A stretch of 64,000 nucleotides of DNA from Paramecium tetraurelia. Lineage: Eukaryota. The position numbers and the translations under genes were made by a program. Location: positions 186,001 through 250,000 of the forward strand of contig CT868026.1 of assembly GCA_000165425.1 (NCBI GenBank). The letters are read 5' to 3'. The notes beneath the pieces are model-generated. The model made no database searches, had not been told where the DNA came from, and saw only the letters and a program-made list of their open reading frames with translations. Numbering within the stretch: position 1 is the stretch's first letter; every line of letters begins with the position of its first letter. Positions 558-59,300 of this stretch are shown piece by piece.

Positions 558-3500
558 TCAATCAATCTCAATATTATCATCGAAAAGTTCACCCATTAAT
601 TCTTAAATACACAGTAAATCCTCTGGAATTAAATCAGATGCTACTTTATCCAAATAAAGTGCCTTCGTATCTGCATCCAATATCCTATACGAAATCCAAT
701 AGCTTTCTTTCAACTCCTTACCATTCAAAGCCTATATTTTATATACTTGTAATCTTACTTAATCAAGTTTGTAAATTATGCTTTGATAATACTCTCCCTC
801 ATTGGGATCACTCAAATTTATTCTACCCATTAACAACGATTATATGCTTCTCCAATTGTCCTTCAAATCATTCAAATTCTTAATTGGGTCATTGGGATCA
901 ACATTTTTTGAAAATTTCTACCTTATAACACTGATTTCTTACCGAAAACTTCTCTTCCGAAAAAATATTATTCTCCAAAGAGAAAGCAACAAAACGATCC
1001 AAGGACATGGCTTTCTCTCCACTTTCATTTGAAACTGTATCACATCTTTCCATGAATTGTGTTCTGATAAACTTCTTGTTTGAAGTAGTCCCTTGATTAA
1101 TTTCAAAATGCAAATATAATTTTTGAAACTCTTAAAACTCAATCATCCCATCCATATCCATATCAGCCGAATAAAACACCTCTTCAAAGTGTGCTTAATG
1201 TATCAATTTGTGTTGATGATAACCCTTCAGCAATTTGCTTATAAAGAAATCAACATCCACACAGACCTTGCCCTTCCTCTCATAAGTATTCTAACGAATC
1301 TCCCTTATAATCTTATCCTTGATATCTGCTCCCAAACACTAATGCTGGATATCCAATGATGCTATAGCCTTATCCAATTGAACCAACACTCCCTTCTCAT
1401 TTACAATTGATGCCATATGAAGAGCTATTTCATTCTCATCCAGGATCTTCAAAGATTGGATATATATATCTAAATCTTCCAAAGTGAGGGGACTTAATAA
1501 TTACAGAAATCTTTGATCAATTACATATACATTTACCTTCCGAATAAGTTTATCCTGAAATTCTCTCTATAAAAATAGACAGATTAATAGAAGTTGGTTA
1601 ATTTTTATTCAGCCATACTTTTGAATCCATAAGTATTTACAAAGTACTCATAGCACATCTGATGTAGAGGAGTGTTTTTATTAGAGTATTACTTTATCTT
1701 ATCAGAGTAAAATTGCGATATGAATTTTAAAATATTAATTCTCTGCATTTTAGGCATGGCTAACTTTGGGTTTTTAGCAAAACGCTCAGCCAAAAATGTA
1801 ACCAAATATTTAGATCTCTAGAAATTGAGTTGACTTGTGGACTCAGCATTATTTCTGTTTTGAAATTCTTATATGTTCAACAATTAAATTACTTGGGGCT
1901 TGTGTTTATGTGATGTTTCTTCTCTTTTGTTGTCTATCCGACTTTTTTTTGGAGTATGCTTCCAATTTAGATGAAATTGACGATTCAACACTTGAAGCAT
2001 CACTATTATCGAGTTCCTCATTCAGAAACTATCTTAATGTATCTGAAATCATCTTTACACCCTCATTGTTCAAAGTATTGGAAGTACTAATTGGAGTACT
2101 CTTCTTAGCAGATTTCAAACTGGATCTATTATTTCCATTACTTGGGATTAATTACTACATAAACATAATTGACATTACATGATTTCCAGGTGACTTCGCC
2201 TAAACCTAAATCTGAGAAGATCTTCTATTGGATACAAAGCTACGTTACGATAAGACATCCTACACAAATATGATTATATAAATACATCTTAAGCCATTGA
2301 AATGCTTTATTGAAATGAAATTTGAGATTACGAAATTTCACTCTCATTGTCAGATTCCTTCTGTTATTCATCAGTATTTGTAATTTGAATGTTCCACTTC
2401 TTTTTAGGTGCATTACTTTCCTAAACTAACTCCCGTTGTGAAATAGTTCTATTAACTTAACCTTCAGGTTTGGGTTAATTTCTATTTGAGTACCCACTCA
2501 TTTACTATCTTCCAGGAGATGAAACAACAAGGTTATTTTATGGAGAATTGGCTGATAAAAACTACTACGATATATCTACGGATGAAGGCAGTTAACTTTA
2601 GGATTGAGTGGAGGGTTATTTTTTCTGTATGAAAACACTCGATCTCTTCTCTTGTATCTTTTTTTTGATGATATTTGTAAATTTCTGTGTTTTAGTCAAC
2701 GAATTTATTAAATTGGTAGTCTTTTCAACTAGTTATTATTTTTTTTCTTTTATTTTATTGTATTTTCTTTCCAATTTTGAGTTTATCTTAAATAAATAAT
2801 TGATATTTACATTCTCTTGTAATTCTAAATGAGCTTCCAATTCTATAATCTCATTTTTTGCAGATTCTAAATTCTATTAGAGATTTTCATTTGTATTTTT
2901 CTAAATTATGTAAGATTATTATTACTAATGATTATAATTCGGTTGCATTTCTAAGATTTTCATCTTTTTATGCACTATTAACGAGTAATAGACTAGTTCT
3001 ATACTCCCTCTATTTCTAAACTGTTTATTTAATCTTAGATGAAATATCGCCTAGACTGAGAACAAAAGAAGACATTTAGTTTAGATCAGGGCTATCCAAT
3101 TGATCCCCTTCCATGAATTGTTTATAATTTTCCTAAACTTTGATAAATTAATCTTAGAATTGAATTAGTTACTCCTCTTCATTTTTGATTTCCTCTTGTA
3201 TTTCGTTGGGTAATTCAGTTTGTGTTTCCTTTTCCACTGCATTGCTCATACTAGAATCGGTTTGGACAATATTGTGTCTGAAATCTGGTAAGAGGATCGA
3301 TCTAAGATTAAGATTAAGAGAGAAGTATTACTTATACTCAGGGACACAGTTAAATACAAAGGTTTGAATGGATTATTCTTTTTGTAGGTCCAGGATTGTA
3401 ATTAGATCATTTGTGTCTGTGGCTTAGTTTTTGAGGATGTCTTCAATATTAGATATAGAGATATCTGAGTCGTTTTTTAAGTCATCCATCATTTATGCAT

Positions 3501-4767
3501 CATTTTGGTTGTCGAAGGCTTGATGCATGTTGGGTTGTATCACTTTTATTGGTTGTGGAAATTGAAGGGGAGAATGATCACTGTTTTATGGAGATTATGA
3601 TCTGTAATTGGTTTGGAATCGCTATTGAAAATCATGGAGATCTGTTTCATTATCTTGGATTTATTGCTTAAGATTTTCGATTTCACTTAGTAAGTACTTA
3701 TTAGAGGTGGTGTAATCATTGAGTTGGAATTTGAGTTGTCTGACAGTGTTTTGCAGGTTTCTGTTGGTTTTCTTGAGATACTTGGCATTATCCTTTAATT
3801 TGATTAATTTTTCTTAAAGTTTTGATTATTCCTCTTTTTAATTTGAAATTATTAATTGAAAATTATCAATTTCCAATTGATATAATTAATGTGTTTTCAT
3901 GATTTGTTTGAGATTTTATTTTTCAATTTCTTTTTTTTCATTAACAAGTTAATCAATAACAGAGGAGTTGATTTCAACATATTGAGTCCAAATCTTTTCC
4001 AGTAGAACACTAAATAAGTTTACAAATTTACATCACCTCCTTTCAATACAATCAATACTGATTTGGCGTATGAGTTCCTTCAAGCACAAGGTGAGAACGT
4101 TTTGCACTTCCTCATAGAAATCTAGCTGTTTTTGATCATTGTACTTATCTACAATCTATTGAACCATTAGATCAACCCAAACAGCGAGTGATTTAATATC
4201 ATGTCTACATAAATAATAAGGTTACTTTTGAGGAATACCTCGATGGAGTTTGTCTCTTGGGTTATGTTTAGACAGGTTACTGCAGAATTTGCCCAATTGC
4301 AAAGGGGGTTCTTTTAATTCAGTGGGGATATGCACTTCAACAGTGGCTTGGATATAAATGAATTGAAATACGCTCTCTGAGTGTTTTAGGTGAGAGATAC
4401 AGTTCAGATAAACGAGTGGGATATTGATAGGGATCCACGCTTTTCAGTTGTCCATAGAAATCATTCCGAGGCTAGAATTTCATCTTGTCAATAATATCTA
4501 ATTGATTTTGTGCTAGCAAGGGGGATCCGTAAAAAGTCTATGTATTTATCACTCAAATACTCCTTGAGATAAAGCCTTGTGCTTTTGAGAATATCTGTAT
4601 GAGATATTTGAGTACTGTTACTAGTTCTTTAAGTTGGGGAGTGAATCTCTCTGTATTCTGGTGAGTCGTTCATTGGATGAGTCAGATCTTTAAGTTGGAC
4701 ATCCTAGTTGGTTAGGCTGGATTGATTAAGTAGTTTTAAGTATGCGAAATTTGTACTATTCGCTCAT
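558..4767 (-). CDS. Large coiled-coil protein with an axonemal dynein light chain (p28-like) domain and a C-terminal EF-hand
   Basis: Ciliate-code translation gives LCLKELIRQISIDCIERG (p28 family ELIRQV...C.ERG motif) near 4030-4090 and an EF-loop ADMDMDGMIEFQEF near 1130-1170; ends ...FDDNIEID-TGA at 558; several tiny introns. Confidence 0.7.
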
Positions 4768-4800
4768 ATTGAATTTTGGATAAATTAAAAATATAAATTA

Positions 4801-5600
4801 TCATTACACTAGAATTGACGACTTCTTCTTAAGAATGTTGTTTTTCTTCCAAGCGATAAGAACACAAACGAATGCTAGCATACCTGAAGAAAAGAGATAT
4901 ATTGTGAAATTAATAGAGGTTTCTTGTCTATTTAATTCAATCATATATGAAGTGTTGAGCATATTGGCTTGATGCTTTACTAAATCGATATCCCTTCTAA
5001 ACTTTTCAGCCCTATATGAAAGTTACTCATTAAGTAAGATTAATTATTGCAATTCTTCATATTTTATTTTTTCAATATTCTCTGAATGATGATCATCATG
5101 AATATGATTATGTGATTCTTAATTATTATTATTATGCTCATCCACTTCGACATCAGTAACCCATTATACATCTTCATTGACTTTTGGTTGATCAACTTAA
5201 ATGTATATTTCAAACTCCTCCTCAGAATGCTCATGATCTCCAACCAACCATTCAGTAATTGAGTCTGAATTCCATTGCTTATCAAAATAGATCAAAGCCT
5301 TTGCCTCCTTATCGACAAATAACAATTATGGAGTCTGCTCTATACCCAATTCAGCACATAAATCTTCAGCTTACCGACAATCCACCACTCCCATCATGAT
5401 TGAATCTGCATGCTATTGATACAATTGATTCCATAAAGCAACCATCTGGTCATCCTTAATGATCAGGAGTAGCAACTACGTTTACAAAGTCTGCTTACAT
5501 TTTACTCACTATTGAGAAGATTCTCAAACTCTGACTTGCTTACCCGATCTCCAGAAAATGAGGCATAGGATATCGTCAATAATATGTAAAATATTATCAT
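4801..5600 (-). CDS. Signal-peptide, thioredoxin-like (PDI-type) fold, C-terminally anchored membrane protein
   Basis: MIIFYILLTISYA signal peptide; MGVVDCRQAEDLCAELGIEQTPQLLF resembles thioredoxin/PDI folds; His-rich linker; C-terminal TM helix followed by a basic tail. Confidence 0.65.
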
Positions 5601-7642: not shown

Positions 7643-9789
7643 ATGAAAAAAGTTACTTAGACTACAGCATCCACCTTCCAACCAAAACGTAGTCTTGCCA
7701 AGGCAAAAAGTCAAAATTAATTTGAAGAAACAGATCCTGCTTAAAGAGGTTATGTATTTATACTATGAAGACAGGAAAATAATCAGGATGAGAAATGTTG
7801 TTGATTTGGGAGATGCTTAGGAGGATAACAAAAAAAATTAAAGAAAGAATGGTAATTCTCAAATTGTAATAAATAGAGGATCAAATCGACCCTTTACTTG
7901 AGCAACTCGATCAATGGCATGAAAATATAATGTCGAAGAAAAAGACTTATGCATTTGAATAGGTCAAGCAAAACGACAACCATAACAAGTTGATTGAAAA
8001 TGAATTCACATTAGAACATGGACCTCAGATTAATTCAAACATCATCAATCAGATCATGAAACCAATTGAAATACCCAACTTCAAAACTGAAGAGAACAAT
8101 GAAGACGTATAAGTCTAATTCCAAATGCTTAGAGCCAACAAAGAATCTGGAAATGTGCTTAAAACACTCGATCAAGTAAGAATTGAAATGAACAAATAAA
8201 TCTTAAATACACTTCTGCTTCAGAAAGTTACCAAAAGGCTTGATGAAATGCATATCAATAGAAAACATAAGACTAATTGGAATATACAACGCATGGATGA
8301 AGAAATAACCCAAGTATTTCGAGATTAGACACACACCTTGAAACAAAGAACTTTGAACAATTTCAAAGGTTTAACCGAATACTTTAGTAATCCTGCATAA
8401 TACATTGATTATGACATGGTTTTATCAAAAGCTAAATACCATTCTAATAGACCACCAACATCATTCCCTACAACTTAAATTCCACAATAACAACAAAACT
8501 CTACTTCTGCAAAATCCTTGATGGAGAGCTATCAACTTTTTCAAACATAAATCAAAGAACATAAAAATGTGCTGTTTTAAATGAGAATTGAAAACAACAC
8601 CTTAGTTTAGTAAATGAATCATTTTGAGGAAGAAGTTCAAGATATAAGACGAAAGTTTTTTGCCAAAGAAGAGAAAGCAAGGCAAGGATGGATTCCTGAA
8701 TAGTAAATTGATGGGTTACCCAACAAAAAAAGGAATCTCATGGATATCATTGAAAAAATCAGAAATTAAAGGGATTAGGAGGTGAAGACAAGGACAAAGG
8801 AAATAATGTCCTTAAGAAAACAAATGTAATAGAATAATGAGAAATAATAATAAATACAAAAGGAACTCGATGAGATGAGATAAAAGAAGAGAAGATGCAA
8901 AATGCTACTCAAAGATATCTTTCTTAAGCAATTCTAAGATTCAAACAACTCTCTTGTTCCAGAAGGCCTCGTTAGTATTATCAAGAACATGAGAAAGATC
9001 AATGAAAGTGCTAAGCCAGAATATTTCCCTAAATTTCTAGATGAAATTTCTAAGAATTACTTGTTGTTAGCAGCTTAACTAGAAATCGATATTGAAGAGA
9101 CTAGAATACTGTCTCAAAAATACAATCATTAACAATTATTGTAGCGTGCCACTAGTGCGAGATAGCATATTTCTACTCAAAGATAATAGATGAATGTTTC
9201 TGAAATTAAAAATTAAGTGAAAATAATGCTAAAGAAAAGTAAGGTGTCAATCAAGAAACCAGTGTTTGTTCAAGGCATCGATCCAATTAATCCAACTTAG
9301 TTTGCTCATGTGATTAAATGGGAACATCAAGATTTGGAACATTAATAAATAACTGAACCTATTGAAAGCAATTTTAAAAATTAAAACGTCTCTTCTGAGC
9401 GAAATCACATTATGAAAGACTACAATTAGAAGCTAGTTTAATTATAATAGTAGTTAGAATTGATTACGAATGAAGAATGCCAACGTATTTTAAAATCATA
9501 TTCCAATAAAAAGTTATTATCTGATATTCAAGAACTGAAAATGGTTATGTATGCACTCTTTGGTTAAACATTGGGAGATTAATAGTGGATCCAATTTGTT
9601 GTCGATTGGACTGAATAGAAGCAATTAAATCCCTTATTTGTTTTAAAACAAGAAGAACAAACGAAATAAAGTGATACACGTAAAGATCAACATTCAATTC
9701 CAGACAAGATGAAAGCTAAAGTATCATAAACACTAAAAAAATTAACAGAAGTTACTAATGTTGATTATAACTTTGAATTAATCTATTGA
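7643..9789 (+). CDS. Hypothetical coiled-coil protein
   Basis: Long open frame in the ciliate code after two 5' tiny introns; Q/E/K-rich; TGA at 9787-9789. Confidence 0.7.
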
Positions 9790-9996
9790 TTTAATATCTA
9801 TATGTAAAATAATAATTATTTGTTAATAACTAAAAATGGAATTATTAATAAAATATATATTAAGGAGAGCCATTTTTAAATCATGAAAGTTATGCTAATA
9901 TAAATATTAATTCTTGTTCAATTTTGTTACATTATAATCTCTAATTTTTCAATTTATATAATTTATTTTGATTATTCTATAATAAAATTTAAAATT

Positions 9997-10650
9997 ATGG
10001 AGGAATATTATTGTAATGCCATCATAGAGTTGGTGTTAGAGAGTGAAGGGGGAAAAGTCAATGATCCAAACGACCCAGGAGGTAAAACAAACCGAGGGAT
10101 AACCTAAAAAACCTACAACGATCAACGAAAAGAGATCATGGGGTAAGCAAATAAGTAAATGGCAAAGAAAGAAAAGAATCCATTGAAAATACCAGAAGAC
10201 AAAGATGTTTTTGATCTTACAGATGATGAGATCAAAGATTTTTACAAATATTAATTCAAAAGATTTTTAGCTCATGAAATTAAAGATCCATATACCTGTT
10301 ATGTGTATTTTGATACTTGTGTTTTGTTTGGCCCTAATAAAGCAATCAAAATACTATAGCTAGCATGCGATATTGAATCAGATGGGAAACTCGGTCCAAA
10401 TACAAGAGCTAAAGTAGAATAAACTATTGATTAAAGAGGATTACAATTAACTATGCTCTTCTTCAGAGAGATGGAACATGAAATGTCGAAAAATTATGGA
10501 ATATACGGAAAAGGATGGTCTAATAGAATAAAGAAGATCACTCAACAAATAGAGGAGGGAGTAATACCAAAATGGCCAAATGATAATGCTAATAAAATAG
10601 TACAATTATAATAACAACAAAAAGTCATAAACTAACCTAAGAAGAAATGA
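9997..10650 (+). CDS. Glycoside hydrolase family 108 (bacterial/phage-type lysozyme) with a C-terminal peptidoglycan-binding-like segment, 217 aa
   Basis: Intronless ORF with ESEGGKVNDPNDPGGKTNRGIT, FDTCVLFGPNKAIKILQ, DGKLGPNT and YGKGWSNRI, matching the GH108 motifs EGGY.NDP.DPGG.T..GIT, FD.AVN.G...A...LQ, DG..GP.T and GW.NR. Confidence 0.9.
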
Positions 10651-10859
10651 ATACTTTAGTAGAATATTATGCAAAATATATTGAAATTATTATTTTCTCT
10701 TCTTAATAGAATTATCTTTAACAATTACTTTATGAGACTAAAGTTAGTTTGAATTACTTAATGATTCGCCATTATGTTTGATATATGAAAACAGAATGGA
10801 AATCAATTTAACTCTATAAGTTATAAAACGATAGACTTATTTGATATAATTTATTATTA

Positions 10860-11440: not shown

Positions 11441-12154
11441 TCATTTGGTGTTTTTTTTCTCTCTAAATTATACTCTGAGTGAATATATTTTTTTATCTTT
11501 ATCCCAAACTGGTTGAAATTTGCCTTCCTAATATAAATAAAATAAAAAAAGTACTTATGTTTCTATCTCTTGATTAGGTATTTTAAAGCTAATGTTTTCA
11601 TATGGTTCACCAGCGAATATCAAGTACTAGTAATTCTTGTCTGGCTACTCAATCTTTTGTTCAAAGGCTGACATAACTCTGTGTTTGGGGATGAATCCGG
11701 GTTGAATGTCTTCATAATAAAGCTCAAAATATAGAACTTTAGAAGTGTTCTCGACAGTGCGTGTGACCTTGTACCCTGGACGACCTATCTTAATAGTTTT
11801 ATGTTTCTAGGGTTTGGGTTGGTTTTATTTGGCCATGTGCATCATCGCATTGAGATCCTTGCCTTCTCTGGCTTTTCTGCGCAACAGATTCTATTGATGT
11901 TTCTTTCCTTGAGTGTGTGCCAAATATGATCCCTCATTGGTATGGAGAGTCAAACATAATCTATAATTTGAATTATATGTATACTTGCATTCATAGGTAC
12001 CAAGATGATTGATCATAAAGTAAGGGTCCTTTTGGAGGTCGATGATCTCCATGGCCAGTTGCTTAAGACGTTCTCTTCTCTCGACATTGGCATCTGCAGC
12101 TGATGCCATAGGACCCGAGCCGGTCCTACCTCCTGGTCGATTTTACATGTCCAT
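11441..12154 (-). CDS. SF3A2: Splicing factor 3A subunit 2 (SAP62/Prp11)
   Basis: MDMQNRPGGRTGSG...RRERLKQLAMEIIDLQKDPYFMINHLGTYECK/LCLTLHTNEGSYLAHTQGKKHQ (matrin-type zinc finger), KIGRPGYKVT, AGEPYENISFKIP; two tiny introns. Confidence 0.95.
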
Positions 12155-12222
12155 TAATTTAATTAATGCTATCAAACCCTCACTTAAGCAACTATATAAG
12201 GTTTTTCTAGATTATCTCAGAT

Positions 12223-15200
12223 ATGGAACAGGAATGTCTGATTACATAGAAAGAGAAGCACCAATTAAAGGTGAATCTAACTCTCAAGGACATGCAATTG
12301 GTTAACATGATTGCACTCAATACAGGTAGTGAAGGATTACAATTATTCATAAGATGCCGATGACGAAGAGTTCAAATACAGCATAATCAACTATTTGAGG
12401 AAGCAAAACTAGTCTCCTCGTCAGAGACAGGGGTAGAAGATAAGATGCAAGTCAACAGGGATCGAAATGAGTCCAATACGTTTGATGAGACGCAATTCTG
12501 TGAGCAAGGAATCCAAGATCACAGAGGAACAGTTGATGCAACAAATTGATGATTTGAATGACTCGCTTGTAATGATTCTATCGAATGAGAACAAATGTGT
12601 ATATTTCGTCCTTTTAATGGTTTTGACTAGATTCTCACGCACCCGGTAACTGAGAAATTGAAGAGCATCCTCGAGGTAATACAAAAGACGACCATTTCAT
12701 CACCATCTACGACAAACACTAAAACACTGTAAGTTGATGAAACAGAGAATTGCAAAATAGTAGACAAATTTACTCAGCTCTATTCAGACATGAAAGTATT
12801 CGTCATTCTCATCCAAATAGAAACATTACACCGATTATTTGAACTGCCATCTCCTATTAATGGACAACAACCTATCCTACGAGACTCTGGTTCAAAGTGT
12901 CAGAGTTTTTGTCAAACGATTAATCGATTCCGATTAGATAACTTATTTGCACATCCGAGAGGATCAATCACAACAGACATATTACTCAGTTGAAGACTAA
13001 TACATCATCACAAATGATAAGTAAATCTACAACGAAACTTAACTGATTCAACCCAACAAAGTTTTGCTCCTAGATGAATGTAATTTCTATCCTGCCTTGA
13101 GTGAATAATTCAAGATTAAGTTGTACAAAAGGAATTATTTGATCAAATTGAATAATCAGGATGTTTTCGTCTGTTTTCATCTGAGTGATCAAACATCCAT
13201 CATCAGTGAATTTCTAGCCTTGGCAGATGAATTCGATATCTTCGAAGATCTCAATTAACTGTGCACCTTCTTGATTGAGACCATCAAACAGGCCAAAATC
13301 CAGATATTTACTCCACTCCAACTCTCACACATGATCCAAGGTATTGGCATTGCCTTCATTCGAAGTTCCAAGTACTTGTTCATTAAGAAGTGCATCCATA
13401 TCTTGCAATCAAAGTACCAAGTTGATATGTATGTATTATATATCCATCTATTTAGTCACATCAATACTGGAGATGCAATGTCTATAATTAGTAGTCCAAG
13501 TTTCTTCTATGGCACTTAGAAATAAGTGGATTTCGAATTCAAAGATGAACTCAATGTATCCATCACCATCAATGGCATGGATCTGAATAGGAAGGCAGAT
13601 CTAATGGTCTACAAATAACTGACTCAAAGTTTCAACAAGTATCTCAAATTCATCAGACAATGTTATGACCGAACCACCTTCTACAAGTTCTTTGTGAAAT
13701 CGCAAGACACACTCATTTTTGAATTTGACAAGTTGGGCAGACTAATCTTCCTGTCTCGACCTATCCCTTTAGAAATCAAGAAGGAATTCAATATAGATTT
13801 TGATCCCAAAAAAACCAAAATGACCTATCAACAACTATTCCAAAATGAGGAACTGCTCAAATATATCGAGAATTTCCTCCAAGAATAAAACATACTCAGA
13901 GACAGTGACCAACAATACCAGGTATTTATGAAAATGGAAGAACGCAGTTTCAAAGGATTTTTCATTATTTTTTAACAAGGCTGGTTTAAATATGATCAGA
14001 AGAAGTTTGATCTCAACGACCCTTCCCTCTAAAAGGAATTGCAGAAATAAATCATTCAACAAGAAACCATAAGATTTATTGACAAGCTCGAATAAAATAA
14101 TCCTCAAATTTTGAATTCTGTTGTCTAGATGTTCAAACCAAGATCCACTTAAAGACAAACTGTTCATTACAGGAATTCCATTCTGCAATTTGAACCTGCA
14201 AAACTTGGAGTCCAACACAAATGTTCATTACGATTGGAAGACTTAAGTACTTAATGCACAGTTCCCAATATCAATAATTTTAATTTCAATATCCTGTCAG
14301 TGGATGAAATGGTTTAAAAATAATTGGTGGTGGTTGAAATCTTAAAACATCACAACTTGATCAAAGAGTATGATGTACCCTTGGATACTCTTTGTTCATT
14401 CCTTAGTGAAATCGAGTATAAGTACAATAAGAAGAAGAATGTGTTTCATAATTATGATCACGGTGTCTCTGTTATGCAGAATATTCATGCCATTCTATTT
14501 TAATTGCATTAAACTAATAATGCTTCTATTTTATCAACCTTCAATCAATTTGCGTTATTATTGTCTGGATTATGTCATGATGTCTCTCACACTGGGAGAA
14601 CCAATACTTTTGAGATCAATAGCTTATCAAATTTAGCCATAAGATATCACGACAGGAGCGTTTTGGAGTAGCATCATGCAGCCAAATCTCTTAAGTTGCT
14701 TTGTGTACCTCATACAAATATTCTGTAAAGTTTGAAAGGAGAAGAGTTTCGAAAATTCAGGAGGATGTTCATTTCCAATATTCTATTCACCGACATCACA
14801 GAACATTTCAATTTGATTAAGAATTTTGAGACCAAAGTATTAGAATAGAATTTTGGATCGTAAGATGAGGACATCAAATTATTAAGTGGCATGATCATTC
14901 ATACTTCAGATTTCACAGGAGGAGCTAAGCAATTCGAGTTGTCCAAGCAATGGTCATTTAAGGTGAATAAAGAGTTTGAATAGCAATATGAATTAGAAGG
15001 TTAATTGGGATATCCCCAATTACCATATATGAAGGACTTGCAGAAGGTATCCTCAATTGTAATTAATTAGTTACCTGTGATGGCAAAACAAGAGGCTGGG
15101 TTCTTTAAGTTTATTGTTCGACCATTGTGGCAATCGATGTCCAAATACTTAGATAATAGGTTATAAGAATAAGTTGATTATCTTGATGAAACAATATAAA

Positions 15201-53302: not shown

Positions 53303-56300
53303 TCAATTTGCTTCTAATCTAATTATCTTTTAAACATTTTAATCTAGACCTAATAGTGTTTGTCTAGACGTCGACTAAGAATTTAATAAATTCAAGAGGG
53401 ATCTTATTTTTAATAAAATATATACTTTTATGATTCTAATTAAAATTTAGATATCTGTATTAAATGAATTCTTAATTTTATTAAGTTAGTTTTTAATTTT
53501 TTTTCTCTTTACTTCATTTAAATTAATTTTCTGTTTACGTAAAGAGTGAGGTTTTAATTGCAATTTAATAATTGTAAAGCTTTGTGTAAATTACTTATAA
53601 ACGGTATTTTGTATTTCTTATAATAGACTCTTAATAAATCAATAACAAATGGATAAGTTAACTTCAAACAAAGTATAATCAATAACATTTCAATCATAAC
53701 AGAAGCAATTTTGTTTTCTTATTATTCACTTATATATTTAATTGAAGCTAAGAAGATTGCAATGGAACATATTTATCCTGTTGATACATCTAGCTAGTTT
53801 AAGTTTTTGATAATATAAGGTTTTTATTTAACTGCATACAATTGATAAAGTAGTAAACATAATCCAAGCAATGAAGCCTTCACAAATATGTTTGTTTCAA
53901 AATATGTCATAATAAGAATAATGACTGTTTTCTTCCACAATTTGATCCATTCCCAAAAGTAAGTTTCATTGTTATATTCATTGAATAGATAACAAATATG
54001 TTTTCGAAAATTGATTTTGTCAAGCTTTTCTCGTTAAATGTACAGAAGCAGAAATAGAGCAGAGGGGATGAGACATCCAATCAATCCTAATCCGGGCAAA
54101 GCAAAACCAAACATCCAATTTTTATGGTTGGTTGAATTAAATAATAAAGATACATCTCCTGATATATATTCTATATTGGAGATAACCCTCTTTGCCAACA
54201 AGGAAAAGAACCTAAAAAATTATCATATTCATTTACTGTTTTATCAAGGCAGCATAGTTTTAAACATATAAATACAAGAGTGCTGTCGATATTAAGCTGC
54301 TATTAAACTTTCTCTTTTTGATGGTTGAATACAACTTAAACCCCATGTATATAATTAATAGTTAGGCGATCATCAATACAATCATGGTTATCATTCTACT
54401 ATAAATTAGATGGATATTATAGATCTCGGATAAGTAGCAATCCAAATTATTAGCCATAAAGAATGATGTGTTGTTTGTCTAATTAATGAAAGTGAATGAA
54501 AAGGAAAATTCACATATTAAAAGTAAATATTACTGAAAATATCCATACATAATTGAGAAACAATTTAAGTAGGATGCTCTCATGATCTAATTATCATAGG
54601 AAAAATACCTTGATTAAGTTTGAATATAATTTTCACATACTTTTGTCTCACTTTCAATGAGGAAAATAATTTATTCGATGTATCGATGCTTCGTAAAGTT
54701 AAAAGAGTGGAAATAAGGGCCCTATTATATCATCTTAATATGTAATACCATATTGTTGTGGCAATAAAAGGTAAAACACTATTAACGGCATCTGTACAAT
54801 CTTGGCAAGTCATATTTATCAAATTTTTAAAATAATTTCCATGACCTCTGATATCATAAATATCACATTCTTCACACAAACCTCCAATGTGACCTACAAC
54901 ACATAAGTGATCTGACACTACCCATCCTCCTTCGCAAAAATTCACAAACTTAAAACAATACTCAATATAATCAGATTAATAATCAGGTCTCCAATACCCC
55001 TGCTTAAGTTCAATCTAATTTGATGTTACGGATTTAAATTTATTTTAATCAAAAATTGAACATTTTGTAGTGTTGTACGTTACTGAGTAATATCCTTAAC
55101 TTGGTTAACATATTTAACAACCAGATTAAACATAAAACTCCCCTAATTAACACTTAAAGCCTTTGATTTCTATATTATATAACAAATCATCAGTTTAATC
55201 ATTCAGATGACAAGAGATTTAAATTTAATTGGTGTAATTATTTAATTGGTACGGATCAGCAGTAATTGATAAAAAGCTTAAATCAAAGCTTTTAAATTCT
55301 GAGTTGTATTCTACAGTTGTAATATTGGTTGAATCAATGAGAACATTGTTCTATAAGGTTTACCTAGAGATCTTGCATGAGGCATTAGAAAAATTAGGTA
55401 ATATTTCGTTTAGACTATTCTTGTATGCTATTGAGAATTCATCTATATACTAATCAAATTTAAGTAAAGATGGATTGTATATATTATAACGAATAATTTC
55501 TTAATTGCTGGGAATCATTAATATTCTAGTTTATTATACTCTTCCTTGTTCCATTACTCGATAGGGCTGCAAATATAAACTATTTACAATAATATTGTTG
55601 ATCTTTTTCTCTATGGTATTCATTTCAAAGTTATTGATTGACAAAGTTAAATGAGTGGGCTTTTCTTAAAGATTATTTGGAATTTGAGATGCAGAATTCA
55701 ATTTCATCCAGGAATTAATAAAATTCTCAGAATTTAAATTACTATTGCCATGTAAGTAAATTCCTCCTCCTTATGAAGCTTAGTTATTGTAAATTATAGT
55801 TTGAGCTATTTTGAATTCGTTGTTATTCAATGATAGATAGAGAGCGCCTCCTTATTAAGTAGCAATATTTTTTAAAAATTTCGAATTGACAAGAGTAATC
55901 CTTACATTTTCAGTTGCAATTGCAGAACCAATAGTGCCATTATTCATCATAAAGAGTGAATTCTTTATCACTAATTTTGTTTCTTATTAAGTTGAAGATT
56001 TAGCAAATATACATCCATAGTTCCTTATATTATTCTTCAGGCAATATGCTTCTACAATTTTAATTGAATAATATTATGTCAAATCAAATTAGATTATTCC
56101 ATTCCAACATTATAAGCATTGATTGTTTGATATTAATAGCTAAGCTAATTTAATTTTATTTTGAGAATGTGTACTTTAAATATGAATCAAAGCACCTGTT
56201 TCACTTGATTAGTGTAAAATTTGTTCAAATATCCACGCAACTTGAGTAGGAGCAGTAAAAACTTGATTCAATAATTGAAGATTGATATTGCAATTATTGT

Positions 56301-59300
56301 AATCTAGAGATATTTTTGAATATTCAATTATATTAGTATTTAATTTACTGAAATCAAATGAAGCCATATTAAGAATTTTAATATCTTGTAAAACAACTTA
56401 GTAAGAAATGGATATTGTTTGCCCAATATGAACCATATTAATTGGGTAAAAGGATTTAGCATTCAAAACTAGGAGATTTGACACATGTAGAGTTTATGAA
56501 TCCAACACTTTTAGTAGTGAAGACAATAAAATTCCTGAAAATTTTAAAGATTAAATATTTAAACTGCATCCTTATATATTAATAATAGCATTATCATTTG
56601 ATATTTTCTAAATGTCATAGATGCTTAGAGATTCCATTTTTTAGAAATATTAAACCAATTAGTTTTCATCTTGAAATATTGAAATGTTCTTCAAAGTAAC
56701 AATATTCGTTTTAAGAGTTAATAGTTAAAACTCTATCTTCATGAATTAGTTTATTAAAGAGAAGCAATTTTAAATAGCTATGTTTTGAAATGTTATTAAA
56801 TTAGACTTGAGGGATGGAATCAATGAAAGTATGGATGAGGCCAATCTATTTTGTATATCTTTAAAGTTCACATTTTTGAATTCTAGTTCTAAAAGACTAT
56901 TTTTTGAATAAATTGATATAGCTCCGTCATTGTCCCCAATTTAGGAGAATATATTTTATGATGATTCTATCTAACAGTTTGTTATAGTCACCTTGCCTAG
57001 TCCCTGAGTGACAACATCAAGTATAGAACTACTTTGAGCCAATATTTCCTTAAAAACACAATTGTTAATTATAAATTATTCTGTTACAATAACCAGAGCT
57101 CCTCCTTTATTTTAGATTGTAAATGCTTTATTAATCAAGTGGTTGATGATATCTTAGTTAAATTTTTCCTTCAAATCTAGGTTGTAATTCTTATTCCAAA
57201 ACGATGAGTTTAATTAGTTATGATTATTAATACCAATATTATTTATTTTGATGGAGTTCGTATTGATGTAAATAAAGGGATTAGTAGAATTAGTTAATGC
57301 ATTGTTTTATGAGGTTAAATGATTTATGTATAAAGAGCTAGATTAAGAATTAATCAGTAGTAGACTTGAAGTAGTTTGGGAAGGATCATCAAAAAGTTGA
57401 TTGAAGCTATTATCCTAAAATTAAATATTCTCCATTTCTATTATCTAAATCTTCTCGGAATATATAGTTAATTATGATAATACTAGACCTAAATTCCTTT
57501 TTACTAAAATATTTCCTATAAATTTTAAGCCTTTAAGTTTAATGTTCTCTCTCTAATTTGTCACTGATGAATTGGATAAAATTTAGATAAAAGATTAATC
57601 CACACTGTACTGATTGATAATTTCAATATTTGTTAAGGATAGAGATGAGTATCCTGAAATGTAAAATAGTTATGAATTTTTCAATGTAACTTATAAACAT
57701 TCAATAGATGCAGGCACTTGATATCTCTGTATTTTATTAGCATATGATAAATCTTCAACGCTAATCTAAGTAACACTTTATAGAATAAAGTATTAAAGAT
57801 GAAAGGAATTTATTATTTCAAATTTCTTTATCTCTAAACTAAAACAATTAATATGAAATAGATAAGCAGATGAATTTTATGCATTTGAAATACCATTTTC
57901 TAAGAAATTAATATTGTATAATTTAACTTCTCCTTAATTGAGTGTTGTTTATTACGTTGTGAAAATAAGAGAAGTGTTAACAAGAACATTGTTTTGAATG
58001 TCAAATTGATCGATTAATAAAGTTGCAGTTGATATTAACTTATAAAACAAAAACGTCTAATTTAAATTACAATCCTCCAACTTCAATTACTTAATAATTA
58101 GACTATTTTAAAAAACTAAAAACTTTGAATTTTCAAATTTATTTGAAATAAATGTAACTTCTGCTAAATCAATATAATAAGTGTCTGTCCCATTAATTAG
58201 TTATGAGTTTTATATAAGAGAGTTTCTAATTTTAAAATCATTAATGTTAATAATCGATTAGGTGTTACTGTCTTATTTAAAATCAAAAATTGTGGAGTTA
58301 ATAAACTAACAATTTTCGATTGTAAGATTTTAAATAAAGCTGTTTTTAGGAAGTGAGTAAAACTAAAAAATGATTGTTTGAGAAAAATTACAGTTTCGAA
58401 TTGTTAGATCTTGTATTTTAATAAAACTAACTTCATCCTGAAATCTAATCTAAAAAGCTATGGAATTTAATATGTTCAAATCGCTTAATGTGATATTCCT
58501 GATCTCAAAATGTTAACACTTTTCTGTCTAAACTGTCATATATATTGAATCTTGGTTGCTCGCAAAAAACGTAGAATCAGTCAGTTTTATATTAGTAGGA
58601 TAATAAGTATTATGAATATATATCTCCAATGATTCCATGACAAAATATAACAGGTGGTTGAGATTTATGGAGTCAAAGTCTTAGAATAAAATTCCTGATG
58701 GAAAAGTAGTTGGTAAATCATCCCCTTATAAAATCATCTCTGTCCATTATAAGGAAATAACTCTTGCTTATAATTAATTAAGTATCTTTAATAGATACGT
58801 AAATCTTATGGGACATAAATCTTGAATAAGAATGATTAAGTTAAATCTTTGGGCACCGATTTGATTGAAGTATTCAAAATTGAATTACTCTAAAAATCTC
58901 TCTAATTCATCAAATATTTCTAAACAATTATATTTGATCTAATTACTTATCTATATATACTTAATAGGAGATGATATTGTCACAAATACCATCAAAACAA
59001 TATTTCGCAACTTATTAATAAGGATCAATCATTATATTTTTTTCTTTCGTTTATTGGACACATTTATATGTATATTTTTTATTTGAGTCATTTATTACAA
59101 AGGCGGGATTAAGGTTCTAAAATTGGGATATATATTATACCTTGATCTCTTCTATTGTCCTTTCTTAACAAACCTAACATAGCAAAGAGCAAGTAATGCA
59201 TAGTCCTTTTTCTATAGTCCTTAAAGGTTCCATGTAATAACTCTAGGTACATTTTCCACAAGTAAATCCATCGGCGGCATTTGTTTCCTTTTGACAAGTA

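Follow-up and report, generated by a model that had tools for sequence, protein, structure and literature searches.

How did a gene for a lysozyme-like protein of glycoside hydrolase family 108 (GH108) come to stand in the genome of a ciliate, and where in the cell would its product act? The question is raised by a 64,000-nucleotide stretch of the Paramecium tetraurelia genome (contig CT868026.1, positions 186,001 to 250,000 of the forward strand), hereafter the window, in which a coding sequence at 9997..10650 on the plus strand encodes a protein of 217 residues (25.3 kDa, pI 8.5) when translated with the ciliate code (table 6). We found it to be a resident, transcribed gene whose product keeps the GH108 catalytic triad and is made without an N-terminal leader. 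The whole chain that we propose, in which a muramidase of phage or bacterial origin is expressed by the ciliate and acts in its cytosol, has in our judgment about an even chance of being right.

A GH108 protein with an intact catalytic triad

The frame opens with the ATG at 9997 and closes with the TGA at 10648-10650, and ten of its 217 codons (nine TAA and one TAG) are in-frame stops read as glutamine. Because TGA alone terminates translation in this code, an open frame is by itself weak evidence: spurious frames overlap in large numbers, including two non-genes on the 9997-10650 stretch. The reality of the gene rests on a match to a hidden Markov model (HMM) and on transcription. The protein carries the signature SEGGKVNDPNDPGGKTNRGIT at residues 16-36, followed by DGKLGPNT (129-136), GWSNR (173-177) and a C-terminal QPKKK. 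An earlier reading made from the letters alone (the original prediction) had listed the 217-residue frame, the ten recoded glutamine codons and these motifs, and translation recovered them all.

The Pfam profile Glyco_hydro_108 (PF05838) matched residues 11-112, the catalytic domain (10027..10332, plus strand), with 69.4 bits (cut-off 21.2; E = 4e-19), while the best profile match was PHROG 315, named 'endolysin' (E = 9.3e-30). Sequence matches in the PDB comprised Neisseria NMB1012 (2ikb), Brucella abortus SagA (7dnp), Salmonella Sen1395 and TtsA, with the HMM alignments to 2ikb and 7dnp reaching residue ~180. An alignment was then made of the protein and 117 representatives, out of the 150 best that were listed; it omits seven long multidomain proteins and the last 26. 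Eight columns of this 118-sequence alignment are invariant (E17, D26, G28, T31, G34, G112, Q121 and R177), and all eight are kept here. In the profile alignment, Glu17 (codon 10045-10047), Asp26 (10072-10074) and Thr31 (10087-10089, all on the plus strand) fall opposite SagA residues of identical number. The accessible text on SagA equates its catalytic Glu17, Asp26 and Thr31 with Glu11, Asp20 and Thr26 of T4 lysozyme (PMC8334348). The membership in GH108 and the catalytic glutamate of the original prediction thus stand on the Pfam match, the invariant E17, the SagA alignment and the fold described below.

An AlphaFold (AF2) model of the protein was obtained with a pLDDT of 93.1 and a pTM of 0.85. 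Superposed on SagA (7dnp), it gave a Z-score of 19.4 and a root-mean-square deviation (rmsd) of 2.7 Å over 171 of 174 residues, the matched range (model residues 2-194) spanning both domains; Z-scores were 15.8 with NMB1012 (2ikb) and 12.3 with TtsA (6v40), and Foldseek returned SagA with E = 9.2e-8. A search of the ESM Atlas gave no usable match. The second domain, a helical peptidoglycan-binding domain of the PG_binding_3 type (about residues 113-187; 10333..10557, plus strand), includes DGKLGPNT and GKGWSNR. Its Pfam profile (PF09374) stayed below the curated cut-off (14.2 versus 24.6 bits, residues 116-142 only), so that of the two Pfam families named in the original prediction the catalytic one was confirmed and the binding one was not. 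The domain is nevertheless counted as present at the level of the predicted fold, because the structural alignment with SagA covers the region. Among relatives, the P. sonneborni protein P0007 described below lies just above the cut-off (25.5 bits), and 104 of the 118 match the profile at E ≤ 0.001.

Between helix 2 and the KDV.DLT motif lies a Lys-rich insertion (about residues 41-69; 10117..10203, plus strand) that is shorter in the relatives from bacteria and phages and that P0007 shares in part; SagA is gapped opposite it, and the model shows a helix at 37-56 followed by a loop. The protein shares with SagA and with TtsA of Salmonella Typhi the two-domain fold and a triad at the same alignment positions. 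It differs from both in sequence (22-23% identity), in the Lys-rich insertion, in a 30-residue tail and in the use of the ciliate code. As read from the alignment, four substrate contacts of SagA are identical here (Ile35, Thr39, Tyr65, which is Tyr83 here, and Trp155, here Trp174), and two are conservatively changed (Tyr69 to Phe87 and Phe151 to Tyr170). By analogy with its family, the protein is likely to be an N-acetylmuramidase.

A resident gene of the ciliate

Nearby frames encode the splicing factor SF3A2, a cyclic-nucleotide phosphodiesterase, coatomer beta and a thioredoxin-like protein, all rich in TAA and TAG; other close frames are an unassigned upstream one of 664 residues, one of 374 and two short ones. 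TAA and TAG make up 10 of the 17 glutamine codons of the gene, compared with 36-72% in six neighbouring frames, and the codon frequencies of the gene correlate with those of its neighbours at r = 0.83 (controls 0.75-0.92). The SF3A2 (Prp11) gene, at 11441-12247 of the window on the minus strand, carries a 24-nucleotide GTA..TAG intron through which the frame continues (YTYNSNYR); introns of this size and form are of the Paramecium type. Runs of 11 studies contain the locus, in 20 records altogether; three of these, all from one study, may be the source.

No holin, spanin or other phage gene was seen among the neighbours, for which no scan against phage families (PHROGs) was made, and no secretion-system or toxin-islet context was found around the gene. 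A six-frame search of the window with table 6 returned no second GH108 member, the gene itself being the sole match.

That the gene is a bacterial or phage contaminant, or that the assembly is a chimera, would agree with the distribution of GH108, which is overwhelmingly bacterial and phage. A frame with ten in-frame TAA and TAG codons is, however, unreadable under the bacterial code, and it lies on one stretch between eukaryotic genes, one of them with a tiny intron. Its GC content and codon use are host-like, it is covered by poly(A)-selected stranded reads, and it recurs in runs of the 11 studies. Contamination, vanishingly improbable on these grounds, is excluded, and the gene is what had been predicted, a recoded resident adapted to its host.

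An unspliced transcript that starts just before ATG 9997

RNA was mapped on 9650-10850 from two stranded oligo-dT runs (X23, 186 reads; X24, 120 reads) and two sets of assembled contigs. Reads lay in the sense orientation only, over about 9978-10674, with the first mate on the minus strand in all pairs of both runs; in the usual stranded library this corresponds to RNA of the plus strand. Depth was first seen in the bin 9978-10018 and last in the bin 10634-10674, and the binned mean peaked at 37.0 (X23) and 30.3 (X24), whereas the last bins of the upstream gene did not exceed 1.56. An assembled RNA contig (X17) extends over 9994-10696, which together with the stranded reads defines a transcript at 9994..10696 (plus strand) with 5′ and 3′ untranslated regions of about 3 and 46 nucleotides. 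No splice joints, indels or base differences were reported over the mapped region; the RNA is unspliced and the gene therefore intronless, as predicted.

Depth falls to 3-8 at 10183-10305 in both raw-read runs, with flanks of 16-37. The contigs of the second set (X20) break at 10162-10280, where the X17 contig is continuous and without a joint; the dip may be a library bias.

In the frame of the gene, the sequence remains open upstream as far as an ATG at 9802, and from an ATG at 9885 it would encode a hydrophobic peptide (MKVMLIQILILVQF...). The GC content of this hydrophobic stretch is 12.5%, and that of 9790-9996 is 13.0%, compared with 32.1% in the gene. RNA depth was 0 over 9814-9936 and just 0.02 over 9937-9977, in X23 only. 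Since the RNA begins at about 9994, the ATG at 9997 is the start, and the open hydrophobic 'extension' is an AT-rich untranscribed spacer (9790..9993). An upstream start or signal exon was considered and ruled out by the absent RNA cover, the lack of joints and the 12.5% GC. A longest-frame gene model of 282 residues would gain from 9802-9996 (plus strand) a false N-terminus resembling a signal or transmembrane segment.

Within the protein itself, the highest Kyte-Doolittle average over 19 residues is 1.06, at residue 108, and windows of 11 residues over the first residues do not exceed 1.4. Neither hydropathy, for an N-terminal signal peptide, nor the RNA, for an upstream exon, thus gave any sign of a leader. 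The protein is made without one, and the original prediction, which had seen no hydrophobic leader, holds on both the RNA-defined 5′ end and the hydropathy.

A probable phage or bacterial origin

A HMMER search of 1.84 billion representatives yielded 5558 matches at E ≤ 1e-3, 488 at E ≤ 1e-10 and a single one at E ≤ 1e-30. The latter is P0007, a P. sonneborni protein of 54% identity named in UniRef 'TtsA-like Glycoside hydrolase family 108 domain-containing protein'. It keeps all invariant columns and part of the Lys-rich insertion and, with residue 179 as its last, has no tail. Two of the 27 representatives that were looked up, among the 150 listed best, came from P. sonneborni.

Outside Paramecium, identities are low. 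Phage records gave 260 matches, all under 60% identity, of which the 15 listed stand at ~31-33%. IMG/VR contained 116 relatives; for the 80 retained, identity on the best segment was 28-37%, with 30-34% in the top full-length ones, and the motif often takes the form EGGKV in these contigs. Named bacterial genomes contributed nine loci: seven longer ones at 24-31% identity and two matches of 25 residues over the catalytic motif at 64%. No named donor was found among these nine. The nearest relative outside Paramecium is a metagenome protein, P0008, of 293 residues and rich in Asn and Lys (40% identity in HMMER, 36-38% in other alignments). Two metagenome scans for its source found nothing. Its glutamine codons would all be CAA or CAG, since it was called under the bacterial code, and it may stem from another protist or from the donor lineage.

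A careful tree was built from 66 rows and 179 columns, covering the four focal proteins, representatives from P0009-P0055, 13 viral sequences and 3 of 6 named bacterial loci. It joins the window protein and P0007 (support 100/93), then P0008 (99/78), then P0013, a second P. sonneborni protein (99/77), and places L080, a viral contig of 28.5 kb in IMG/VR, as sister of this Paramecium clade (98/86); the tree is unrooted, its bootstrap did not converge (correlation 0.908), and long branches lead to P0008 and L080. P0008, nested within the clade, shares the start of the extension of the long forms described below, with the motif FSLDP..P.Q....KVC.PD. The neighbours were the same, though less well supported, in a quick tree of 137 rows. 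With the Paramecium sequences embedded among those of phages and metagenomes, the gene very probably came from a prokaryote or a phage, which bears out the horizontal acquisition originally proposed.

In L080, the GH108 module lies inside a frame of 976 residues (2455-5385, plus strand) that also has a weak tape-measure match (E = 2.6e-7). By this arrangement it reads as a virion-associated lysin rather than a free endolysin. Compared with the phage endolysins and virion-associated lysins of PHROG 315, the window protein has in common the best profile match and the lack of a leader, and differs in that its gene stands among eukaryotic neighbours, with no holin or lysis cassette seen.

A Paramecium family with long forms

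The original prediction pictured a lone domesticated gene. This picture had to be abandoned, the gene being one member of a Paramecium family. P0013 has 616 residues, and searching with its C-terminal part uncovered relatives of 608-687 residues in P. pentaurelia, P. octaurelia, P. primaurelia, P. tetraurelia and P. sonneborni, in addition to two fragments. These long forms carry an N-terminal GH108-like module, accompanied in some by PG_binding_3, then ~450 residues with a Cys-rich end. They share with the window protein the clade, the N-terminal GH108 module and the lack of a leader, and differ from it by the extra ~450 residues and the Cys-rich end, all absent from the window protein. At lenient Pfam thresholds, 11 of 13 aligned members matched GH108 and four zf-RING_Vps41 (best E = 0.0076, weak). 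Seven of the 13 also matched DUF1598 weakly (best E = 0.025); in the 118 relatives of the alignment, DUF1598 did not co-occur with GH108 at E ≤ 0.001. The Cys-rich ends are weakly RING/PHD-like, and zinc-binding domains of this kind are typical of cytosolic or nuclear proteins. A model of the long-form C-terminal part was poor (pLDDT 64.5), and matches to the N-terminal domain took up the whole structure search. Literature searches on GH108 in ciliates and eukaryotes and on Paramecium lysozymes and TtsA yielded no description of the long-form family, and no treatment of such genes apart from the preprint discussed below.

The upstream 664-residue frame was considered as a split-off long-form C-terminal domain and rejected, as it showed no likeness (best E = 7.5). 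P0233, one of the long forms, and P0007 lie on P. sonneborni contigs of equal size (229,755).

As read from the alignment, the Glu/Asp/Thr triad is kept in three of the eight full-length long forms, P0227 (P. pentaurelia), P0228 (P. octaurelia) and P0013, and residues of it are lost in the other five: the Glu is gone from P0235 and P0233, and both the Asp and the Thr from P0230-P0232. A family that tolerates catalytic loss to this extent, together with the low PG_binding_3 score, leaves room for the view that the window protein is no longer a hydrolase, having become a peptidoglycan binder or sensor or a slowly decaying relic. We consider this quite unlikely: the window protein and P0007 keep every invariant column across 46-47% divergence, the frame is intact and transcribed, and the model is a confident one (pLDDT 93.1). 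The window gene is better described as a short, catalytically intact-looking member of the family.

Site of action and function

With an mRNA that starts 3 nucleotides before the ATG and no leader, the protein is made in the cytosol. The first GH108 helix begins within ~10-15 residues in P0007, P0013 and the long forms as annotated, and no hydrophobic leader was seen in any family member examined, again as annotated. Our guess, at slightly less than even chances, is that the cytosol is also where the protein acts, which fits a family leaderless as annotated and long forms with zinc-finger-like ends.

A digestive role is one rival reading, in which the enzyme would reach food vacuoles by a route without an N-terminal signal. 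Paramecium eats bacteria, and ordinary poly(A) libraries show good expression of the gene. In the accessible text of a preprint on P. bursaria, lysozymes derived from horizontal gene transfer (HGT) are linked to bacterial food and algal walls (bioRxiv 10.1101/2024.09.14.613017). The absence of a leader could in addition be simply the phage endolysin condition. Against this stand the RNA-fixed 5′ end, the lack of a signal peptide or hydrophobic segment here and the lack of a leader throughout the family as annotated. We know of no unconventional route for ciliate lysosomal enzymes, and we regard a digestive role as rather unlikely.

The original prediction had suggested a possible antibacterial effector of cytosol or nucleus, acting on intracellular bacteria such as Holospora or Caedibacter, and had likened the QPKKK end to a nuclear localisation signal. 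In its full form this reading would have PKKK direct the protein to the nucleus, where it would kill bacteria of the Holospora type. The protein is indeed leaderless, small and basic (pI 8.5), with a Lys-rich tail and an insertion containing KKEK at residues 57-60. The classical monopartite nuclear localisation signal (NLS) follows the pattern K-K/R-X-K/R, which KKEK fits and of which the PKKK of the tail fills three positions only. The tail itself (residues 188-217; 10558..10647, plus strand; ending ...NKIVQLQQQQKVINQPKKK, with a predicted helix at 196-211) appears species-specific, being absent from P0007, which ends 30 residues earlier. It was also considered as a remnant of the long-form linker, and this was rejected: residues 186-217 aligned with nine relatives no better than shuffles did (for the best, 81 of 500 scored as high). 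Because the tail is missing in the P. sonneborni protein, the NLS-like reading of QPKKK lacks support. A protein of 25 kDa can enter nuclei passively, with no need of an NLS, so that even nuclear presence would not show targeting. With the tail missing in the closest relative and without above-chance likeness to the long forms, a nucleus-directed effector is very unlikely.

We return to a captured muramidase acting in the cytosol, for which the following course of events may be proposed. An ancestral phage or bacterial gene would have entered the lineage before the divergence of this species from P. sonneborni, and would then have adapted to the codons of its host, including TAA and TAG for glutamine. 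As inferred from the family, the helical C-terminal domain would hold the muropeptide while the flap bearing Glu17, Asp26 and Thr31 would cut the MurNAc-GlcNAc backbone, in the manner of T4 lysozyme. The substrate would be peptidoglycan that reaches the cytosol, whether from bacteria leaving a food vacuole, from cytoplasmic symbionts or as wall fragments.

Several points weigh against this proposal. Leaderlessness may be the ancestral state of a phage endolysin, inherited baggage rather than a sign of function, and the outer membrane as a rule keeps muramidases that come from outside away from the Gram-negative wall. In the protein, the Y..YW motif lacks its near-invariant Trp, and Leu110 takes the position of the SagA substrate contact His92, as read off the alignment; the sub-threshold PG_binding_3 score belongs here as well. 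For the origin, the unrooted tree with its unconverged bootstrap and long branches has to be counted. Word-index protein searches returned no other Paramecium relatives, a silence that says nothing on how widely the short form occurs among Paramecium species, as they also missed the known P0007.

Judged from the sequences, a cytosolic defence role is plausible. It could extend to a surveillance system for cytosolic peptidoglycan built from the captured phage muramidase, with the short protein as its hydrolytic arm and the long ones as its binding or marking arm. The short protein would attack bacteria exposed to the cytoplasm, such as Holospora in transit or residents of the Caedibacter type, and the long relatives, with their RING-like end and, in several, a dead catalytic site, would bind peptidoglycan and mark the invader or signal its presence. 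We offer this extension as a long shot.

Further features of the window

At 54730-58992 on the minus strand, a frame of 1420 residues contains 87 TAA and TAG codons, repeats rich in Asn, Ile, Ser and Gln, and a Cys-rich end. It matched the Chlam_PMP repeat weakly (E = 1.9e-4) and is probably a large surface or secreted repeat protein of the ciliate.

Relation to other captured lysozymes and significance

The transfer is real, and its kind has already been reported. According to the accessible text of the P. bursaria preprint, a TtsA-like lysozyme (TTSA) is among nine HGT-derived glycoside hydrolases of that species, all the HGT genes contain introns, and TTSA dates from the stem lineage of P. 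bursaria (bioRxiv 10.1101/2024.09.14.613017). As far as that text goes, the two cases share enzyme family, genus and argument (UAA and UAG codons, transcription and a tree nested in prokaryotes). They differ in that the window gene is intronless and has its relative in P. sonneborni; the two cases may reflect one transfer or two. More distant parallels, judged from the available text of each report, are the eukaryotic capture of a GH25 lysozyme (eLife 2014, PMC4241558) and phage lysozymes in bivalves (PMC5303276), in which a bacterial or phage wall hydrolase likewise became a host gene, from other glycoside hydrolase families and in other hosts. In UniRef, the proteins of P. sonneborni and P. 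octaurelia already carry a GH108 label.

Since species of the aurelia complex carry GH108 genes, the claim that TTSA belongs to the stem of P. bursaria only, as it appears in the accessible preprint text, may need revisiting. Within the family, GH108 modules, some intact and others degenerate, occur along with a large Cys-rich extension. That the protein lacks a leader, as pinned by RNA, poses a real question of compartment in a bacterivore that hosts both cytoplasmic and nuclear bacteria. Paramecium is amenable to RNA interference by feeding and to microinjection of GFP constructs, which makes localisation and function directly testable. A peptidoglycan-surveillance system, if true, would be a protist parallel to the cell-autonomous immunity of animals.

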